From: Minisyncoccia bacterium | GTDB lineage: Bacteria; Patescibacteriota; Minisyncoccia; Phycocordibacterales; UBA918 | Assembly: GCA_041736805.1 (NCBI GenBank) | Contig: JBGSSW010000004.1 | Coordinates: forward strand, 51,843-115,842 | Reading direction: 5' to 3' | DNA length: 64,000 nucleotides | Shown here: positions 3,183 to 61,004 of the stretch, in pieces | Position numbering within the stretch: position 1 is the stretch's first letter | Layout: each line of letters starts with the position of its first letter | Notes under the pieces: model-generated | Databases searched by the model: none | The model's input: the letters and a program-made list of their open reading frames with translations, nothing else | What the model was told of the DNA's origin: nothing | Position numbers and translations under genes: made by a program

Positions 3183-6100
3183 ATGAAATTTCCGGGTATG
3201 TTTTGTATGCTTAAAAGACCTATCACGCTAACTTTAGTGTGGGCAATTTTTCTGCAGGTCTCAGGAGCGACTATAATTAGCGTTCTGCTTCTTACTCCAG
3301 AAAAAGCTGAAGCTGCTGCAAAAATAATAGAACCAACTCCAAGTACAAGTGCCGTCACCCATACACAGTCTGGAACTGGGATTGTGTTTGTGACACCAGA
3401 CGTTGGTTATAAGTTTCACGTCTTTGGTGCTGTTCCGGATTCAGGCAAGTGTGTATATCGTAAAACTACTGACGGTGGAATAAGCTGGGGGTCACAAGTA
3501 GTGGTTGACTCACAGACAGACTGTCAGGGGGTTTCAGTTTGGTATGATCGTTGGACCCCATCTGATACTGGAACAATAATTCATATTGCTACGTATGATA
3601 CAAGTGCAGACGAAATTTACTACAATAGTCTCGACACTACTTCTGATACTTTGCTGCTTGTCACTTCTACTAGTACTATGTTAAATCTTGTCACGGCATA
3701 CGCTGCTGGTACAAATAATGTTTCAATTACAAAAGCCACTAATGGAAACCTGTATATTAATATTGATGATGCTAATGGAACTTTTATTCGTACCTGTACA
3801 TCTACTTGCTCAATAGGTAGTAATTGGACCGCCGCTGGTACACCACCGCAGGGAAACGCCAATACCGCTAGCATCCTGATGCCTCTTTCAGGTGGGAGTG
3901 TTATGTTGGTAAACCGTAGTACCGGAGGAGTAGTGCGTTCCAGTATTTGGAATGGTGCTTCCTGGTCCGCATTTACTAATATTGATACTTCAGCAGTAGT
4001 AAACACGACCTATGATGTCGGTATGTCACTGACTCTTTCAACCAGTACAAATGATATCTACATGTCATATATTGCCGATAATAATGACTTTATCACTAGT
4101 GATCATGACTTAAGGACGGCTTTGTATAACGGCAGTAGTTGGTCGACATCTACAGCAGCAATACTGACTGATACTAGTGGTCGCGGACTACATCAGGTTA
4201 CAATGTCACGTGACGCAAGTACGGGTGATATTTATGCAGTTTACGCGGTACGGACAGATATTACTAATGCTGCCTCAGCCAATGTTTATTATGCTCGTTC
4301 GACCGACAACATGACTAGCTGGGAAAGTGAGGTAGGTCCAGTTAATACCGTCCCAGGAAATCTCTACGGTATCGACACTAACCCAATGTTTTACAGTAGA
4401 CTTTTTGTGGCTTGGTTTAATAATCTGGCTCTAGATGTCATCGGTGATAGTATTTTACCCACTCCTACCGATACTTTAGTTGCACTTGAACCTACGCCAC
4501 AAACCACCGCTTCAGGACATACGATAGCTGGAGCTGCAACTGTGTTTGTGACAGACCAAATTGGTTATCGTTTTCTACGTTTTGGGGCTGCTCCAGATAG
4601 CGGTAAATGTGTCTATCGTAAGACTCTGGACGGAGGTTTACACTGGAGTAGTCAGGTGGTGGTTGACGCACAGACTGACTGTTCGGGCTTGGCGGTTTGG
4701 TATGATAAATGGACACCGGGAGATACTGGCAGTTATATTCATATTGCGACCTACGATATAGGTAACGATGATATATTTTATAATCGCCTCGACACTGCTA
4801 ATGATTCATTGCTTCTAACTACTTCTACAACTACCATGCCGGCTACGGCCAGTGTTTTAGCAGTCGGAACAAACTATGTTGCCATCACTAAAGCAACTGA
4901 CGGAAAAGTATATGTAAATATTGATGATGCTAACGGTACGTTCTTACTTTCATGTGCAGCTACCTGTGATAATTCAAATAATTGGGCAGCTGTGGGTACT
5001 GCACCACAAGGAAATGCAGATAGCTGGAGTATCATGGCTCCATTATCAGGGGGAAACGTGATGCTTATTAACCGTTCGACTACCAATCAGATACGTTCTA
5101 GTATTTGGAATGGTTCAATTTGGTCTTCTTTTAATACAATCGACGCCGCTGCAGTCAGAAATACTGTTTACGACGTCGGTATGTCCGCTACTATAGATAT
5201 AAGCACCAATGACATTTATCTAGCATATGCCACAGACAATGATAATTTTACGACGGCAGACCACGATATAAAAACTGCTAAATATACTGGGGGAGCTTGG
5301 TCAGCTATGACTAATATCATAACTAATGACCCTGCCCGAGGTGTTCTTCAGGTAGCGATAGGGCGCGATCAAAATAATGGTGATATCTACACGGCCTATT
5401 CAATTCGTTCCCAAATTTCAACCACTACTTCCGCTAATGTCTTCTACTCACGATCAACTAATGGGATGACCAGTTGGGAAGCTGAAGAGGGCCCGATAGG
5501 ACGCGTTGAAGGTGATTATTATGGTTTGGATATGAATCCAATGTCATACGAAAGATTGTATGTTAGTTGGTTTGATAACGTGACTACGGTCAGAGACATT
5601 TATGGAAATACTCTGGCCGACATTGGACCCGATACAACCTTGAGCTCGCTAGGTACACAAAAAAGCGAGACTTTAGCTGGAGAAAATAACTTTTATGTCG
5701 GAGGTTCATTTATGTTAACGACCTTGGTGTCTAAAAACGTTAACACAATAATAATTGCTGAATCAGGGACAATTCAAGCTCGAAACAATATAAAAAATGT
5801 AAGTTTATATTACGACTTTGATACCTCGGCTCCCTATGACTGTGAAAGTGAGTCATATGGCGGAGGTGAAGCCCAGTTTGGGACAACTGTGGCAGGAGGT
5901 TTCTCTGGAGCTAACGGCGTCGCTTCATTTAGTACCTCTCCAGTCGGAATAACAGGAACAAAGAGTATGTGTATCTATCCTGTTTTCGATATCCAGTCCG
6001 GTGCCCAAGATGGAGACACGATTGAGATTTCCGTTCTAAACCCAGAGACCGACGTTTTGATTTCCGGAGTGTTTGAAGTATTTCCAGCTACTGAAGTAAG

Positions 6101-17547: not shown

Positions 17548-18786
17548 ATGTCAGAGCCCGTTACATTTACAATAAAGAAAAAATTATCAAACTCTCTGGC
17601 GCGAGTGGGAACTATCCATACCCCTCATGGTGATATTGAAACCCCAGCCTTTGTCACGGTAGGTACTAAAGGTACCATAAAGGGAGTAATGTCAGAGGAA
17701 ATGGAAAAGTACGTTGGTAATCAAGTAGCTTTAGCGAATACTTACCATCTATTTCTTCAGCCTGGTCACGAAGTTATTAAAGCCTCTGGAGGATTACATG
17801 AATTTGCTAATTGGCATTTGCCGACGATGACTGATTCTGGTGGATTTCAAGTTTTTTCACTAGGAGCCGCCTTTGGTAAAGGAGTTACAAAGTTCGCTAA
17901 AGGTGAAGCGGATGAAGAAGTGCTTAAACAACATCATGGTCTCAGTGTCTACTCACAAGAATTTGCTAGTGAACACGGCAAACTTTGTATTATTGATGAA
18001 GAAGGGGTGACTTTTACTTCACATATTGACGGCTCGATGCATCGCTTTACGGCAGAACGTTCGATTGAAATTCAGCAGGCGATAGGAGCTGATATTATTA
18101 TTGCTTTTGATGAATGTACTAGTCCAACAGCGGATTACCAGTATCAAAAAGAAGCTATGGACCGGACACATCGCTGGGCTAAACGTAGCGTAATGGCACA
18201 CAAGCAAAACTATGAAGCCATCAAGAAGCAGGGGCTTTACGGAGTAGTACAAGGTGGACGTTATACTGATTTGCGCCAAGAGAGCTCTAAAACTTTAGCT
18301 GCGATGGATTTTGCTGGCTTTGGCATCGGGGGTTCATTTTCCAAAGAGGATTTAGGTGACTCTCTAAAGGTGGTAAATGAAATTTTGCCTGAGGATAAAC
18401 CGCGACACTTACTGGGAATTGGGGAACCCGAAGATATTGTTGAAGGAATATTGCAAGGTTGTGATACCTTCGACTGCGTCGCTCCCACTAGGATAGGAAG
18501 GACTGGCACTATCTATGTTTATACCGGTAGGACTGTCACCAGTAAGTGTGGACGAATAGCATATCCAGAAACAACTAAAATAAATTTAAATAACGAAAAA
18601 TACAAAAACGACCACTCGCTACTAGATCCGTTTTCTGAAGGCCATGTTGCCACGACCTACACCAAAGCCTACCTTTCACATTTATTTCGAGCCAAAGAAA
18701 TGCTTGGACCGCAATTGGCTTCAATTCACAACCTACATTTTATTGTCAGTTTTACTAAGAAATTACGAGATCAATTATTAAAATAG
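17548..18786 (+). CDS. tgt: queuine tRNA-ribosyltransferase (tRNA-guanine transglycosylase) lacking the canonical Zn-binding CxCxxC motif
   Basis: Conserved LHTPHGDIETPAFVTVGTKGT, LANTYHL, MTDSGGFQVFSLG (catalytic Asp), LLGIGEPEDI...DTFDCVAPTR, YTKAYLSHLFRAKEMLG. The region that normally carries CxCxxC contains no Cys. Confidence 0.8.
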   Translation: MSEPVTFTIKKKLSNSLARVGTIHTPHGDIETPAFVTVGTKGTIKGVMSEEMEKYVGNQVALANTYHLFLQPGHEVIKASGGLHEFANWHLPTMTDSGGFQVFSLGAAFGKGVTKFAKGEADEEVLKQHHGLSVYSQEFASEHGKLCIIDEEGVTFTSHIDGSMHRFTAERSIEIQQAIGADIIIAFDECTSPTADYQYQKEAMDRTHRWAKRSVMAHKQNYEAIKKQGLYGVVQGGRYTDLRQESSKTLAAMDFAGFGIGGSFSKEDLGDSLKVVNEILPEDKPRHLLGIGEPEDIVEGILQGCDTFDCVAPTRIGRTGTIYVYTGRTVTSKCGRIAYPETTKINLNNEKYKNDHSLLDPFSEGHVATTYTKAYLSHLFRAKEMLGPQLASIHNLHFIVSFTKKLRDQLLK

Positions 18787-18789
18787 AAA

Positions 18790-18903
18790 CTCTCCGGAAC
18801 TCGTTGAGTTAACCGGCGAGGTGGGTGACAACCAGAAGGGGACAAGTGCGTCGTGCACGGACGACTACACACGGAGGGACGGAATTCTCCACTGGCTATC
18901 AGG
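18790..18903. other. GC-rich, stem-loop-rich ~115-nt element between tgt and uvrB; candidate structured small RNA, unassigned
   Basis: Sharp local GC rise in AT-rich DNA. Nested inverted repeats (CCGGAACTC..GAGTTAACCGG; GTCGTGCACGGACGAC). No ORF. An AT-rich promoter-like tract follows before uvrB. Confidence 0.25.
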
Positions 18904-18978
18904 TAAATCCATTAATAGAGTAGCATAAAGATCTTCTTTATCAACTATTATAAGAGTGCTATATTTAAACAATATTTT

Positions 18979-21033
18979 ATGCCATTTAAGATATCTACAG
19001 AAAAAACCCCGGCTGGCGATCAGCCAGAGGCTATCAAAGCTCTCGTAAAAGGGATTAAAGCTGGCCACACCCACCAGACGCTTTTGGGCGTTACGGGCTC
19101 TGGTAAGACGTTTACGGCTGCTAATGTCATACAACAGATTCAAAAACCCACCTTAGTAATTGCTCACAACAAGACACTAGCCGCCCAACTAGCTCAAGAG
19201 TATCGTGATTTCTTCCCAGAAAATGCGGTACATTATTTCGTTTCATACTACGACTACTATCAACCAGAGGCCTACATGCCCACTTCTGATACTTATATCG
19301 AGAAAGAAGCCCAAATCAACGAAGAGATTGATAGACTGCGTCACGCCTCCACTCAAGCTCTACTGACCAGAAATGATGTCATTATCGTAGCGTCTGTGTC
19401 GTGTATTTACGGCTTAGGGGCTCCAGCCGAATATCTCAAACGACATTTAAAAATTGAACGTGGTTACGAGACCACCCGCACTAATATTCTCCGCACTTTG
19501 ATAGCAATGTATTTTCAAAGAACTAACGCCGATTTAATTCCAGGAAATTTCAGGGCGGTTGGTAATACTGTCGAAATCATGCCCACCAATGAGCGAGTTA
19601 TTTTTAGACTAGGTTTTGCTGGTAATAAAGTTTCTTCCATTACAAAAATAGACGCTGTCACCAGAGCCATTATTTCTGAACCGGAAACCTTTTTCTTATT
19701 CCCTGCCAAACACTTTGTTACTCCAGAAGAGGAGCGAAAAATTGCCATTAGCGAAATTCAAACTGACTTAGACAAACAGTTAAATAAATTCAAAAAAGAA
19801 GGTAAATTGTTGGAATCTGAAAGACTTCGTCGTCGCACTCAGCATGATTTGGCTTTGATGCGTGAGGTTGGTTACTGTAACGGTATTGAAAACTACTCTC
19901 GTCATTTTGATAGACGTAAGGAAGGTGAACCACCCTACACTCTATTGTCATATTTCCCACATACCAAGGATGGTAAGCCTGATTTTCTCACTATTATTGA
20001 TGAGTCTCATGTCACGATTCCACAAATCAATGGCATGTTTGCGGGTGATCGCTCACGCAAGGAAACTTTAATTGAATTCGGTTTTCGTTTACCCAGTGCT
20101 TTAGACAATCGACCACTACGCTTTTCTGAATTTGAAGAGAAGGTTGGTCAAAGAATTTATACTTCTGCAACTCCAGGTAAGTATGAATACGAGCAATTGA
20201 ACAAAAGCAAGATACCAATGATTGAACAAGTAATCAGACCAACGGGACTAGTAGACCCAATAATTGATATTAGAAAAATTACTGAAGTAGGCAATTATCC
20301 AGGTCAGGTTAAAGATTTTATTGAAGAGGCCATAAAGGTCATTAAGGGCGGTACTAGGGTTTTGACCACAACCCTCACAAAGAAGATGGCCGAGGACTTA
20401 TCAGAATTTTTGACAGAGCGAGGAATTAACGCTAAGTATATTCATAGTGACATTGACACAATTGAACGAATTGAAATATTGACTGACTTTAGACGCGGTA
20501 AATTTGATTGTCTAGTAGGGGTCAACTTACTCCGTGAAGGTCTCGACTTACCCGAAGTGGAACTAGTGGCAATTCTTGATGCTGACAAGCAAGGTTTCCT
20601 TCGTAGCGAAACAGCTTTAATTCAAACTATTGGTCGAGCAGCCAGAAATATCAATGGAAGAGTTATTCTTTACGCAGACGAAATGACTCCAGCCTTAGAA
20701 TATGCAATTGGAGAAACGAATCGGCGCCGCGACAAGCAACTTGCTTACAACAAAGCAAACGGTATTACTCCTAAAACAATCGCTAAGGAAATAAAATCTA
20801 TTACAGACCAAATGCGGACCGAACATGATGAAACCGTGGATACTTTATTAAAAGTTGATATGGACATTTTTCTTAAAAATCCAAAAGTCGTCTTGAAGGA
20901 TAAAAAACGACAAATGGATGAGGCTGTATCTGTCCTAGACTTTGAAACAGCAGCGATAATTAGAGATGAACTTAAAATTTTAGAAGAAACCTTACTGAAA
21001 AATAAGAAGTCAAAACTTAAGTCAAAACGTTAA
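18979..21033 (+). CDS. uvrB: excinuclease ABC subunit B
   Basis: GVTGSGKTFT (Walker A), QLAQEYRDFFPENAVHYFVSYYDYYQPEAY, helicase motifs, C-terminal UVR domain (ETAAIIRDELKILEE). Confidence 0.95.
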   Translation: MPFKISTEKTPAGDQPEAIKALVKGIKAGHTHQTLLGVTGSGKTFTAANVIQQIQKPTLVIAHNKTLAAQLAQEYRDFFPENAVHYFVSYYDYYQPEAYMPTSDTYIEKEAQINEEIDRLRHASTQALLTRNDVIIVASVSCIYGLGAPAEYLKRHLKIERGYETTRTNILRTLIAMYFQRTNADLIPGNFRAVGNTVEIMPTNERVIFRLGFAGNKVSSITKIDAVTRAIISEPETFFLFPAKHFVTPEEERKIAISEIQTDLDKQLNKFKKEGKLLESERLRRRTQHDLALMREVGYCNGIENYSRHFDRRKEGEPPYTLLSYFPHTKDGKPDFLTIIDESHVTIPQINGMFAGDRSRKETLIEFGFRLPSALDNRPLRFSEFEEKVGQRIYTSATPGKYEYEQLNKSKIPMIEQVIRPTGLVDPIIDIRKITEVGNYPGQVKDFIEEAIKVIKGGTRVLTTTLTKKMAEDLSEFLTERGINAKYIHSDIDTIERIEILTDFRRGKFDCLVGVNLLREGLDLPEVELVAILDADKQGFLRSETALIQTIGRAARNINGRVILYADEMTPALEYAIGETNRRRDKQLAYNKANGITPKTIAKEIKSITDQMRTEHDETVDTLLKVDMDIFLKNPKVVLKDKKRQMDEAVSVLDFETAAIIRDELKILEETLLKNKKSKLKSKR

Positions 21034-32386: not shown

Positions 32387-32462
32387 GGGCCAGTAGCTCA
32401 CTTGGTAGAGCGCCTCATTTGCACTGAGGAGGCAGGGAGTTCGAATCTTCTCTGGTCCACCA
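32387..32462 (+). tRNA. tRNA-Ala (anticodon UGC), 76 nt with encoded CCA
   Basis: Cloverleaf folded by hand. Acceptor GGGCCAG/CTGGTCC with the G3:U70 alanine identity pair. D-arm GCTC-ACTTGGTA-GAGC. Anticodon loop TTTGCAC. T-loop TTCGAAT. 3' CCA present. Confidence 0.85.
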
Positions 32463-32557: not shown

Positions 32558-32630
32558 GGGCCCTTAGCTCATCCGGTAGAGCGCTTCCATGGCATGGAAG
32601 AGGTGAGCGGTTCAAGTCCGCTAGGGTCCA
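32558..32630 (+). tRNA. tRNA-Ala (anticodon GGC), 73 nt, CCA not encoded
   Basis: Acceptor GGGCCCT/AGGGTCC with G3:U70. Anticodon stem CTTCC/GGAAG, loop ATGGCAT (anticodon GGC). T-arm AGCGG-TTCAAGT-CCGCT. Discriminator A. Confidence 0.8.
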
Positions 32631-32632
32631 CA
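32616..32632 (+). repeat. 17-nt direct repeat copy 1 (gtccgctagggtccaca), the 3' end of tRNA-Ala(GGC); att-core-like
   Basis: Identical 17-mer recurs at 32800-32816. Confidence 0.6.
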
Positions 32633-41329: not shown

Positions 41330-41722
41330 ATGGAGTACGGTATGTACACGAAGTATTTTTTCACCCTGGTTCTCGTTGCCCTTTTTGCTGGTTGTGCCAG
41401 CAACGAAAGCTACCATTCATCGCGTCGCAATGCGGTGCCGGTGGATGAACTCGGATCGCGCGGGGCCACCTTTGCCGGCCAAGCCCAGCAGTTCCATCAG
41501 AACAACATGGCCATGAGTGTGTGCCCCAACGGCACAATCACGAAAAAAGGCGGTGGCTCGATGAACGCCGGAGCTGGTGACCAGAGTGGCCGAGTGACCT
41601 ACAGTGTCACCTCAGCCAGTCAGTTCAAAGAAGAATGCGACTACGGTGAACAAAACCAGGCACCAAAAACGCCGGCTCGTAACGTTGGAGAAAACCCGAC
41701 CAAGAAGGAGAAGCGGCAATGA
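41330..41722 (+). CDS. small lipoprotein (lipobox LFAGC), GC-rich foreign-looking gene
   Basis: MEYGMYTKYFFTLVLVALFAGCASN... signal peptide plus lipobox. GC3-biased codons. Competing overlapping frames rejected. Confidence 0.5.
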   Translation: MEYGMYTKYFFTLVLVALFAGCASNESYHSSRRNAVPVDELGSRGATFAGQAQQFHQNNMAMSVCPNGTITKKGGGSMNAGAGDQSGRVTYSVTSASQFKEECDYGEQNQAPKTPARNVGENPTKKEKRQ

Positions 41723-41973
41723 GGCTTCTTTGCGCAGCTCTCGCCATTGCAATGTCGGGTTGCGCCAGTACCAACTATTACGTCGAAAGCGACATTCCAG
41801 GCCTAGCCGGAAAAATTGCTGAGGGAATGCAATCAATCCCTCAGCACTCCTGTCAGCCTGGAGAAAAAGTTTTGATGCTCTCAAGAGCAGATTCCAACTG
41901 CACGAAAGCTGGTTGTCGGGAGAAATTCCAGAAGAAAATTTCCTGCCAAAAAGCAACCCCAGAGCGCCGCTAA
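41719..41973 (+). CDS. small lipoprotein (lipobox MSGC), GC-rich, translationally coupled to the previous gene (ATGA overlap)
   Basis: MRLLCAALAIAMSGCASTNYYVES... Start overlaps the upstream stop. Confidence 0.5.
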   Translation: MRLLCAALAIAMSGCASTNYYVESDIPGLAGKIAEGMQSIPQHSCQPGEKVLMLSRADSNCTKAGCREKFQKKISCQKATPERR

Positions 41974-59959: not shown

Positions 59960-60754
59960 ATGGCAGAATTTAAAAAATACTATAACCCCAATCGAAGTAG
60001 TGAGTGGAACTATGGCGGAGAAAAATGGCGCCTATCACGTTCAAAAATTGACTTTTTTATTGAATGTCCACGTTGTTTTTATCTTGATAACAAACTTGGC
60101 ACCAAGCGCCCAGGTTTTCCCTCTTTCAATTTAAACATTGCGGTTGACGAGTTGTACAAGAAAGAATTTGACATTCATCGTGCCGCCAAAACGCCACATC
60201 CAATTATGAAGAAGTATAAAATTGAAGCGGTCCCTTTTTTGCACAAAAATATGGATAAATGGCGCGATCCATTTGTTGGTATCGAATATAAGGAACCCAA
60301 AACTGGTTTAATGGTATCGGGAGGGGTTGATGATATTTGGGAAACAAAAAAGAAATCGTTAATTATAGTTGATTATAAATCAACATCTAAAGCGGGTTCC
60401 ATTACTGAGCTTTCAGATAGTCCCTGGGATCAACAATATACTAGACAACTTGGAGTCTATCGCTGGTTACTAGAGAAAAACAACTTTGCAGTCGAACCAA
60501 GAGGTTACTTGGTTTATGCCAATGCAAGTAAGGAAGAAGCTGCTTTTGCTGACAAGTTGGTCTTTGAAACCACGTTAGTGTCAGTAGAAACTGATACGAA
60601 TTGGATATTACCAACATTACGAGACATTAAAATTTGTCTTGAGGGCGACGATTTACCAGCTATAGGTGAAAACTGTGAATTTTGTCCCTATCGTGAAGCT
60701 AGCGGTAAAAAACTTCAGGCCATCCATTATGCAAAAATTAAAGTCAAAAAGTAA
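59960..60754 (+). CDS. Cas4/RecB-like PD-(D/E)XK nuclease with four Cys (Fe-S cluster-type), standalone
   Basis: N-terminal ECPRCFY. Motif II/III IIVDYKSTSK. QLGVYRWLL (QxxxY). C-terminal CEFCPY. No CRISPR array or other cas genes in the window. Confidence 0.65.
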   Translation: MAEFKKYYNPNRSSEWNYGGEKWRLSRSKIDFFIECPRCFYLDNKLGTKRPGFPSFNLNIAVDELYKKEFDIHRAAKTPHPIMKKYKIEAVPFLHKNMDKWRDPFVGIEYKEPKTGLMVSGGVDDIWETKKKSLIIVDYKSTSKAGSITELSDSPWDQQYTRQLGVYRWLLEKNNFAVEPRGYLVYANASKEEAAFADKLVFETTLVSVETDTNWILPTLRDIKICLEGDDLPAIGENCEFCPYREASGKKLQAIHYAKIKVKK

Positions 60755-61004
60755 GAGGAACTTCAGTCTAGAGGTAAAGAATGTGGTTAAGAACATCCCA
60801 CGTGGCCAGACTCTTTCCTACAAAGAAGTGGCCACACTAGCTGGCAATGCGAAAGCCGCCCGAGCTGTAGCCAGAGTGATGTCTACTAATTATGATGAGA
60901 GTATTCCTTGTCATCGGGTAATTAGGAGTGACGGCACCTTTGGTGGCTATAACCGTGGTGGAGAGCTGGTCAAACGTGATATATTAGAGTCTGAATCTAA
61001 ATAA
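60729..61004 (+). CDS. ogt: methylated-DNA--protein-cysteine methyltransferase, minimal single-domain form
   Basis: Active-site PCHRV present (IPCHRVIRSDGTFGGY). HTH (LSYKEVATLAGNAKAARAVA). Internal ATG 60729 chosen; the ORF-track 60666 start overlaps the upstream gene by ~90 nt. Confidence 0.7.
   Translation: MQKLKSKSKRNFSLEVKNVVKNIPRGQTLSYKEVATLAGNAKAARAVARVMSTNYDESIPCHRVIRSDGTFGGYNRGGELVKRDILESESK

Follow-up and report, generated by a model that had tools for sequence, protein, structure and literature searches.

The window analysed here, a 64,000-nt stretch of contig JBGSSW010000004.1 of a Minisyncoccia bacterium (assembly GCA_041736805.1), carries tgt, encoding a queuine tRNA-ribosyltransferase (17548-18786, plus strand; Pfam PF01702, TGT, E = 1.8e-121), and, on the same strand, uvrB (18979-21033; Pfam UvrB domains). 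The nearest relatives of this Tgt in a collection of species-representative genomes were all encoded by uncultured Patescibacteria/CPR MAGs labelled Paceibacteria, Parcubacteria or Kaiserbacteria. The spacer between the two genes had been singled out as an isolated GC-rich, hairpin-dense element at positions 18790-18903, and its composition bears this out: the window has 38% GC, and the spacer reaches 0.58 at 18800-18899, while adjacent segments stay at 0.25-0.43. Its 60-nt GC maximum (0.63, starting at 18823) was the highest among the intergenic gaps of the window, and the region of the two tRNA genes reached 0.60. These tRNA-Ala genes, at 32387-32462 (anticodon TGC) and 32558-32631 (GGC), both on the plus strand and about 100 nt apart, were the only Rfam or ARAGORN matches in the 64 kb. 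Short ORFs account for the other GC-rich intergenic gaps inspected. One GC-rich island (41330-41722 / 41719-41973) holds an 84-aa ORF with a 4-nt overlap at the stop of the 130-aa gene before it, and another (60666-61004) holds a 112-aa ORF that, by eye, seems to resemble the DNA-binding domain of methylated-DNA-protein-cysteine methyltransferases.

No ORF of at least 40 aa lies wholly within 18790-18903, in agreement with the original prediction that the element is noncoding. A 92-aa ORF on the minus strand (18865-19143) overlaps the element and runs into uvrB, and we took it to be spurious. A tblastn search with the six-frame peptides of the element found nothing significant in the fetched loci, and the open frames differ, by eye, between the window and the homologous element of a related genome (L043, see below). 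A pseudogene or small protein-coding gene was rejected on the absence of an ORF of at least 40 aa inside the element and on the empty six-frame tblastn search.

Read on the minus strand, convergent with tgt and divergent from uvrB, the spacer presents an ordered series of features. A -35-like hexamer (TTGATA, 18939-18944) lies 16 nt upstream of the -10-like hexamer of an extended motif, TGcTACTCT (18917-18925), which was recognized by eye in the window and includes the block conserved on the plus strand as TAGCA. The proposed small RNA has about 130 nt (18780-18910), and we infer both of its ends, a start near 18910 and an end in a U-rich tail near 18780. In the minimum free energy (MFE) fold, the 5' strand of a closing helix, P1 (UGAUAGCCAG, 18892-18901), pairs with its 3' strand (CUGGUUGUCA, 18826-18835), where two G·U pairs of the window correspond to A·C mismatches on the plus strand. 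P2 (18873-18890) is a GGAG/CUCC hairpin with a 10-nt loop, AAUUCCGUCC, at 18877-18886, and P3 (18850-18865) is a hairpin of the form GUCGU-CCGUGC-ACGAC. An A/C-rich linker, ACCCACC (18819-18826), is unpaired in the window fold and conserved in the alignments (ACCAACC in the two homologues, L043 and L139); its first A also belongs to P1, as the final base of that helix. The MFE fold then forms a predicted terminator hairpin, CUC-G-CCGG-UU-AACUC [AAC] GAGUU-CCGG-A-GAG, at 18790-18820, and the U-rich tail UUUCUAUUUU (18780-18789) overlaps the tgt stop codon TAG (18784-18786). The three inverted repeats noticed in the original prediction are all in the sequence and recur as helices in the folds: the first is contained in the terminator hairpin, the second (GGAGGGACGGAATTCTCC) is P2, and the third (GTCGTGCACGGACGAC) is P3. 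The functional unit would be wider than the 18790-18903 first delimited, with a transcript at about 18780-18910 and a promoter-like site reaching to about 18944.

Homologues of the element were found in the same tgt-uvrB spacer of two other loci. The first, L043 (contig JBGSVK010000002, with a Tgt 85% identical to that of the window), was recognized by reading spacers; the second, L139 (identical to L138; loci from SRR26992859/62, with a Tgt 84% identical to that of the window), was found later by protein-anchored look-ups. A blastn search of the element against 80 genome loci gave nothing significant. A covariance model built from the three sequences (R1) was run against the window and 84 loci and matched only those three (117, 108 and 83 bits; the next match had E = 4.5), placing the window copy at 18775-18901 on the minus strand (117 bits, E = 1.6e-26). 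The element is single copy in each locus. No second copy was found in the 64-kb window or at nonsyntenic sites of the fetched loci (85 searched sources), which follows in part the original suggestion to look for copies elsewhere in the genome.

The similarity between these elements exceeds what shared ancestry of neutral DNA would leave. The chained spacer alignment of the window and L043, with the window stretch taken from 16 nt within the 3' end of tgt onward, scored 99.9, against 70.2 ± 6.7 for shuffled sequences (0 of 1,000 as high). The third-position identity of tgt between the same two genomes, at conserved four-fold-type codons, was 0.38, which is near saturation, and neutral spacer DNA is therefore expected to be unalignable. 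Because these silent sites are near-saturated, the similarity of the elements is better explained by selection than as leftover neutral sequence. The element occurs patchily, in 3 of about 15 lineages, and is absent from about a dozen closer relatives sharing the tgt-uvrB synteny, so it would be dispensable or quickly turned over.

The minus strands of the window, L043 and L139, each folded alone, gave the same architecture (z = -2.19, -3.41 and -2.88, respectively): a long-range P1 of 9 to 10 bp enclosing P2 and, where present, P3, then an unpaired ACCMACC, a hairpin and a U-rich tail. P2, formed in all three folds, has a 4-bp stem and a loop of 9 to 10 nt whose core, CGUCC, is invariant in the three sequences; its stem is GAGG/CCUC in L139, and thus two of the four P2 pairs covary. 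P3 is optional, being replaced in L139 by a hairpin of different sequence at the same place (UCGGC..GCCGA) and absent in L043. The hairpin before the U-rich tail has an unrelated sequence in each of the three genomes and always the same position. The conserved unpaired nucleotides are C-rich and lie in the P2 loop plus CUCC, and in ACCMACC.

The helices are kept in the homologues by compensatory substitutions. On the model-fitted alignment, 7 of the 10 P1 pairs were changed on both sides, and 93% of the cells remained paired. The covariation score of the whole structure was 0.68, compared with 0.06-0.17 when the partners were slid by 1 to 3 columns, and was reached by 1 of 500 shuffles. A separate alignment made by hand was in agreement. 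These values come from three sequences only (one of them seen on two contigs), so that the statistics are thin, and from alignments that were both fitted to the structure, one by hand and one (A7) by the R1 model, after MAFFT had misplaced the 24-nt indel of P3. RNAalifold recovered P1, P2, P3 and the terminator unaided from the manual structural alignment. We regard the covariation as suggestive, not conclusive, and it agrees with the independent single-sequence folds. The candidate structured noncoding RNA of the original prediction, for which conserved covariation in relatives had been named as a check, is upheld by two syntenic homologues that keep the same helices.

In the window, the plus strand folds no better than its shuffles (z = +0.39), and the minus strand gives z = -1.6 to -2.2. 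The element is thus not flagged by thermodynamics alone, given the plus-strand value, and it is the comparison with relatives that flags it. The z-scores give no clean split between strands, since the plus strand of L139 folds at -56 kcal/mol versus -45 for its minus strand, and a thermodynamic strand comparison of 13 spacers was not decisive. The pairs themselves are more informative. Standard pairs fill 29 of the 30 cells of P1 on the minus strand versus 23 of 30 on the plus strand, as six G·U pairs become A·C on the plus strand, and no P1 pair favours the plus strand.

This asymmetry bears on the reading in which the element belongs to the plus strand and acts in cis on a tgt-uvrB transcript, as a structured tgt 3' UTR or as a uvrB 5' leader or riboswitch. 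Read-through from tgt is plausible, as the scan found no plus-strand terminator of tgt in the window, and the mirrored helices can form, with a consensus energy of -34.0 kcal/mol (-39.9 for the minus strand) and z-scores of -2.2 and -2.65 for the plus strands of L043 and L139. These mirrored helices would nevertheless carry the six A·C cells in P1 (in L139, with a run of three at mid-helix) and one more in the terminator hairpin, and the plus-strand MFE structures of the window and L043 are unlike each other. The arrangement of the locus also speaks against it: the element of L139 lies about 450 nt from uvrB, that of L043 is parted from tgt by a separate terminator-like hairpin, and most syntenic relatives keep tgt-uvrB without the element, which argues against a leader of either gene. 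A plus-strand, cis-acting element is therefore unlikely. The original prediction had read a terminator-less unit on the plus strand between tgt and uvrB; here it gives way to the minus strand, to which the G·U/A·C asymmetry, the hairpin with its U-rich tail and the promoter-like sites all point.

An extended -10-like site lies upstream of the structure on the minus strand in all three genomes, at the same position and in the same form. The promoter scan reported TTGACA-16-TATTGT in L043 at the right distance, with the TG extension (TGcTATTGT) and 10 of 12 consensus positions, and TTGACA-16-TATGAT in L139 (11 of 12), where TGgTATAAT can also be read nearer the structure. The window site, TTGATA-16-TGcTACTCT (18944-18917), matches the consensus at 8 of 12 positions; it is weak, was recognized by eye and was not among the sites that the scan listed. 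All these sites are matches to a consensus and no proof of a promoter. On the plus strand, the scan reported a promoter-like site for uvrB (TTATCA-16-TGcTATATT, 18938-18965) whose end is only 13 nt from the ATG at 18979. Given this short distance, and no Shine-Dalgarno sequence within it, the uvrB mRNA may be nearly leaderless. The motif TGnTAnAnT recurs by eye near the start codon in the spacers of relatives.

At the other end of the proposed RNA, the statement that the element has no T-tract, and is hence not a simple terminator, is true of the plus strand only; on the minus strand, UUUCUAUUUU (18789-18780) stands directly after the first hairpin. This hairpin (CCGGAACTC..GAGTTAACCGG) is most likely the intrinsic terminator of the RNA itself. 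In the window, it is an interrupted 12-bp stem (18790-18820, MFE fold), and the strict rule of the scan did not list it because of the interruption. In L043, the scan flagged a minus-strand terminator-like site (stem GCCAGCTTTTCAACAGAAGCTGGC, tail GGTTCCTATT), and in L139, a hairpin with a U-rich tail is also visible in the MFE fold. The core of the tail, UUYCUAU, is kept in all three sequences. In the window and in L139, this tail adjoins the stop codon of tgt, which it does not overlap in L043 or L139. Scans of two other relatives (L083 and L135) did not confirm that every relative carries a minus-strand terminator.

Could the whole element be no more than transcription punctuation, a terminator or insulator between tgt and uvrB with drifting spacer around it? 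Several relatives without the element still have, by eye, a hairpin beside the tgt stop, and the hairpin nearest tgt has no conserved sequence, both of which fit such a role. It would leave unexplained, however, the P2 loop, ACCMACC and the covariation of P1 against a background of saturated neutral divergence, as well as the promoter-like sites on the minus strand, and we consider it quite improbable.

A similarly low probability is given to a feature acting at the DNA level, such as a MITE-like remnant or a scar left by recombination in a hypervariable spacer. Many relatives share the tgt-uvrB order, with spacers that range from 65 to 732 nt and are unrelated in sequence; two of these spacers contain an inserted ORF. 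This extreme variability, the patchy distribution of the element, and the pentamer AATAG seen by eye on both sides of it in the window and L043, would suit a scar of this kind. Against this, no terminal inverted repeats were found, the element lacks a second copy in the places searched, and the plasmid and phage collections gave no match to it; among viral contigs, there was one chance match (L131). Moreover, the helices stay paired by means of G·U wobbles and double changes, a mark of selection acting on RNA and not on DNA.

The element also matches no described RNA family; the original prediction could not match it by eye to 5S, SRP RNA, tmRNA or a known riboswitch. None of the 4,227 models of Rfam 15, which include SRP RNA, 6S, tmRNA, RNase P, riboswitches and ribozymes, matched it at gathering thresholds. 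At E<=10, both strands of 18700-19000 gave only three chance-level matches, outside the element or at its edge. SRP RNA (RF00169/RF01854) did not match the element even at E<=10, and the same search found a large SRP RNA in an unrelated contig (L094), which shows that the method works. The homologous loci L043 and L139 likewise had no family match. The best sub-threshold match was that of RF02224 (the Xanthomonadaceae sRNA sX5) to 37 nt of the L139 terminator hairpin (20.7 bits, E = 0.039); this is far under the gathering score of 50, covers only the nonconserved terminator hairpin, and has no counterpart in the window.

The searches also weigh on the reading of the minus-strand RNA as a riboswitch-like sensor, in which P1, P2 and P3 would form an aptamer and the terminator would gate antisense read-through into the 3' end of tgt. 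A multihelix domain closed by P1 and then a terminator is the classical layout of an "off" riboswitch. The element resembles it in that its P1-closed domain is followed by a terminator within 5 to 9 nt, that the tails of the window and L139 border on the stop codon of tgt, and that the conserved unpaired nucleotides cluster in the P2 loop and the linker. On the other hand, no ORF follows on the minus strand, the plus-strand alternative lacks a conserved fold and has A·C mismatches, L043 has no P3, and a strong hairpin with an A-tract and a T-tract, seen by eye between the element and tgt in L043, would block read-through. No similarity to Rfam riboswitches, the preQ1 classes included, was found at E<=10. 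The 5' leader (GGAC/GGAU) and the P2 loop (GUCC) are complementary in all three sequences, which tentatively suggests a leader-loop pseudoknot; its register is not conserved, differing in the window, and shuffled leaders equalled the complementarity in 26, 116 and 2 of 1,000 trials. Altogether, a minus-strand riboswitch is very unlikely.

A more specific form of this idea, an orphan aptamer sensing a metabolite of the queuosine pathway or another ligand and tuning tgt through a noncoding antisense transcript, strikes us as very improbable. If true, it would place aptamer-gated antisense control of tgt in an organism with a minimal regulatory repertoire. It would resemble terminator riboswitches on noncoding or antisense transcripts (the B12 riboswitch-AspocR of Listeria and EutX of Enterococcus) in its P1-closed domain with an adjoining terminator, the lack of a downstream ORF on the same strand, and the convergence with a neighbouring gene, here tgt. 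Unlike them, it matches no riboswitch model, one of its three helices is dispensable, L043 has the extra hairpin, and the only hint of a ligand is the neighbourhood of tgt.

On balance, then, the element is probably an independently transcribed gene for a structured noncoding RNA of about 130 nt, encoded on the minus strand between tgt and uvrB. Judged from sequence comparison, it would constitute a new, lineage-restricted family of small RNAs outside the described ones, seen in three related uncultured Patescibacteria genomes. Transcription would start from an extended -10 type promoter (about 18944-17) and proceed through a short 5' leader into the 10-bp closing helix P1. Inside P1, P2 would present the conserved C-rich loop (AAUUCCGUCC, then CUCC), with P3 as an optional addition. 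After P1, a single-stranded ACCMACC would precede an intrinsic terminator made of the hairpin and UUUCUAUUUU.

Small RNAs with C-rich loops in Gram-positive bacteria act by pairing with G-rich, Shine-Dalgarno-like regions of their targets. Our best guess is that the RNA described here is possibly a trans-acting regulator of this type, which would base-pair through its exposed C-rich loop or its A/C-rich linker with Shine-Dalgarno-like, G-rich stretches of mRNAs. We searched for targets of the loop and the linker near 49 gene starts in the window and found no convincing site. With RsaE/RoxS and the hairpins of Staphylococcus aureus RNAIII, it shares the organization as a stand-alone intergenic gene of about 100-150 nt, a promoter of its own and a Rho-independent terminator (both predicted here), and a conserved C-rich loop or linker (here CGUCCC and ACCMACC) that could pair with G-rich ribosome-binding sites. 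It differs from them in having no sequence or Rfam similarity, in the placement of its C-rich loop inside a domain closed by a long-range helix, and in its Patescibacteria host.

Patescibacteria (CPR) have tiny genomes and few recognizable regulators, and our literature search found no paper describing sRNAs, regulatory RNAs or structured RNAs in them. A small RNA backed by covariation would provide a handle for metatranscriptomics and target prediction in these bacteria. The family is narrow, so its immediate impact is modest. The turnover of structured elements in the tgt-uvrB spacer may also inform on the birth and loss of sRNA genes.

Different elements occupy the spacer in different relatives, so that small structured elements seem to be replaced rapidly at this site in the clade. 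The spacer also behaves as an insertion hotspot. In L083, it contains an inserted ORF of 433 aa (3993-5294) with no Pfam match, and in L132 one of 275 aa (3889-4716) with a weak match to Methyltransf_11. A different element is shared by L083 (3790-3930) and L134 (1880-2030), with the plus-strand core UUCGGCUUAACGAGGyCUAnUUUGrGGUCGnACCAACG; its minus strand (z = -3.07 and -2.65 for the folds) forms a strong hairpin, with compensatory differences between the two relatives, ahead of a U-rich tail, and it had no Rfam match at gathering thresholds. A third, palindromic element (..TCCTCGCTC..n..CGCTGCGG..) was seen by eye directly after tgt in L133 (3745-3850), L136/L137, L090 (3760-3810) and L043 (4255-4325). 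The L043 copy lies between tgt and the sRNA homologue and, bordered by an A-tract and, at its other end, a T-tract, looks by eye like a bidirectional terminator. In L135, the minus strand of the spacer (2743-2870) folds at -54.0 kcal/mol (z = -5.8) and the plus strand at -36.2 (z = -3.7). This spacer has no sequence similarity to the window element and a layout that is similar by eye, with a long-range helix and a hairpin plus UAUUUAUUU beside the tgt stop. It is possible that the tgt-uvrB locus encodes fast-diverging sRNAs throughout the clade.

A further search, of metagenomes, used the pattern GGTGACRACC-N(10-40)-GGAGGGACGGA, derived from the two conserved plus-strand blocks of the element. 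It returned about 29 scattered matches in unrelated high-GC contigs and one abundant family of soil metagenomes (L094, L103, L109, L114, L125, L130 and near-identical copies). This family carries GGTGACAACCAG and, beyond an intervening hairpin, GGAGGGACGGA, both as exact copies and ordered as in the element. It was rejected as a homologue, as R1 did not match it at E<=10 and the partners of P1 and P2 are missing by eye; unlike in P2 of the element, its GGAGGGACGGA block pairs, in the consensus fold, with a distant 5' segment (GGUGCC..CCCC). The about 29 random matches show that chance hits are expected at that database size, and we conclude that the resemblance of the soil family is due to chance, amplified by the abundance of the organism.

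The soil family has features of its own. It spans about 175 nt (L094, 2174-2230 on the minus strand, and surroundings), with the order GGUGCCAG..GGCUUAG..GGUGACAACCAG..GCUGACGARGGRCGUCAG..GGAGGGACGGA..GGUAGCAUCA, and occurs also in L103, L109, L110, L112, L114, L120, L121, L125, L127 and L130. It had no Rfam match even at E<=10. A formyltransferase gene (Pfam PF00551/PF02911, checked in L094) follows it directly in four contigs. RNAalifold gave a consensus with 42 pairs, of which 5 show compensatory changes. The family is unrelated to the window element and may represent a leader or candidate riboswitch not described before.
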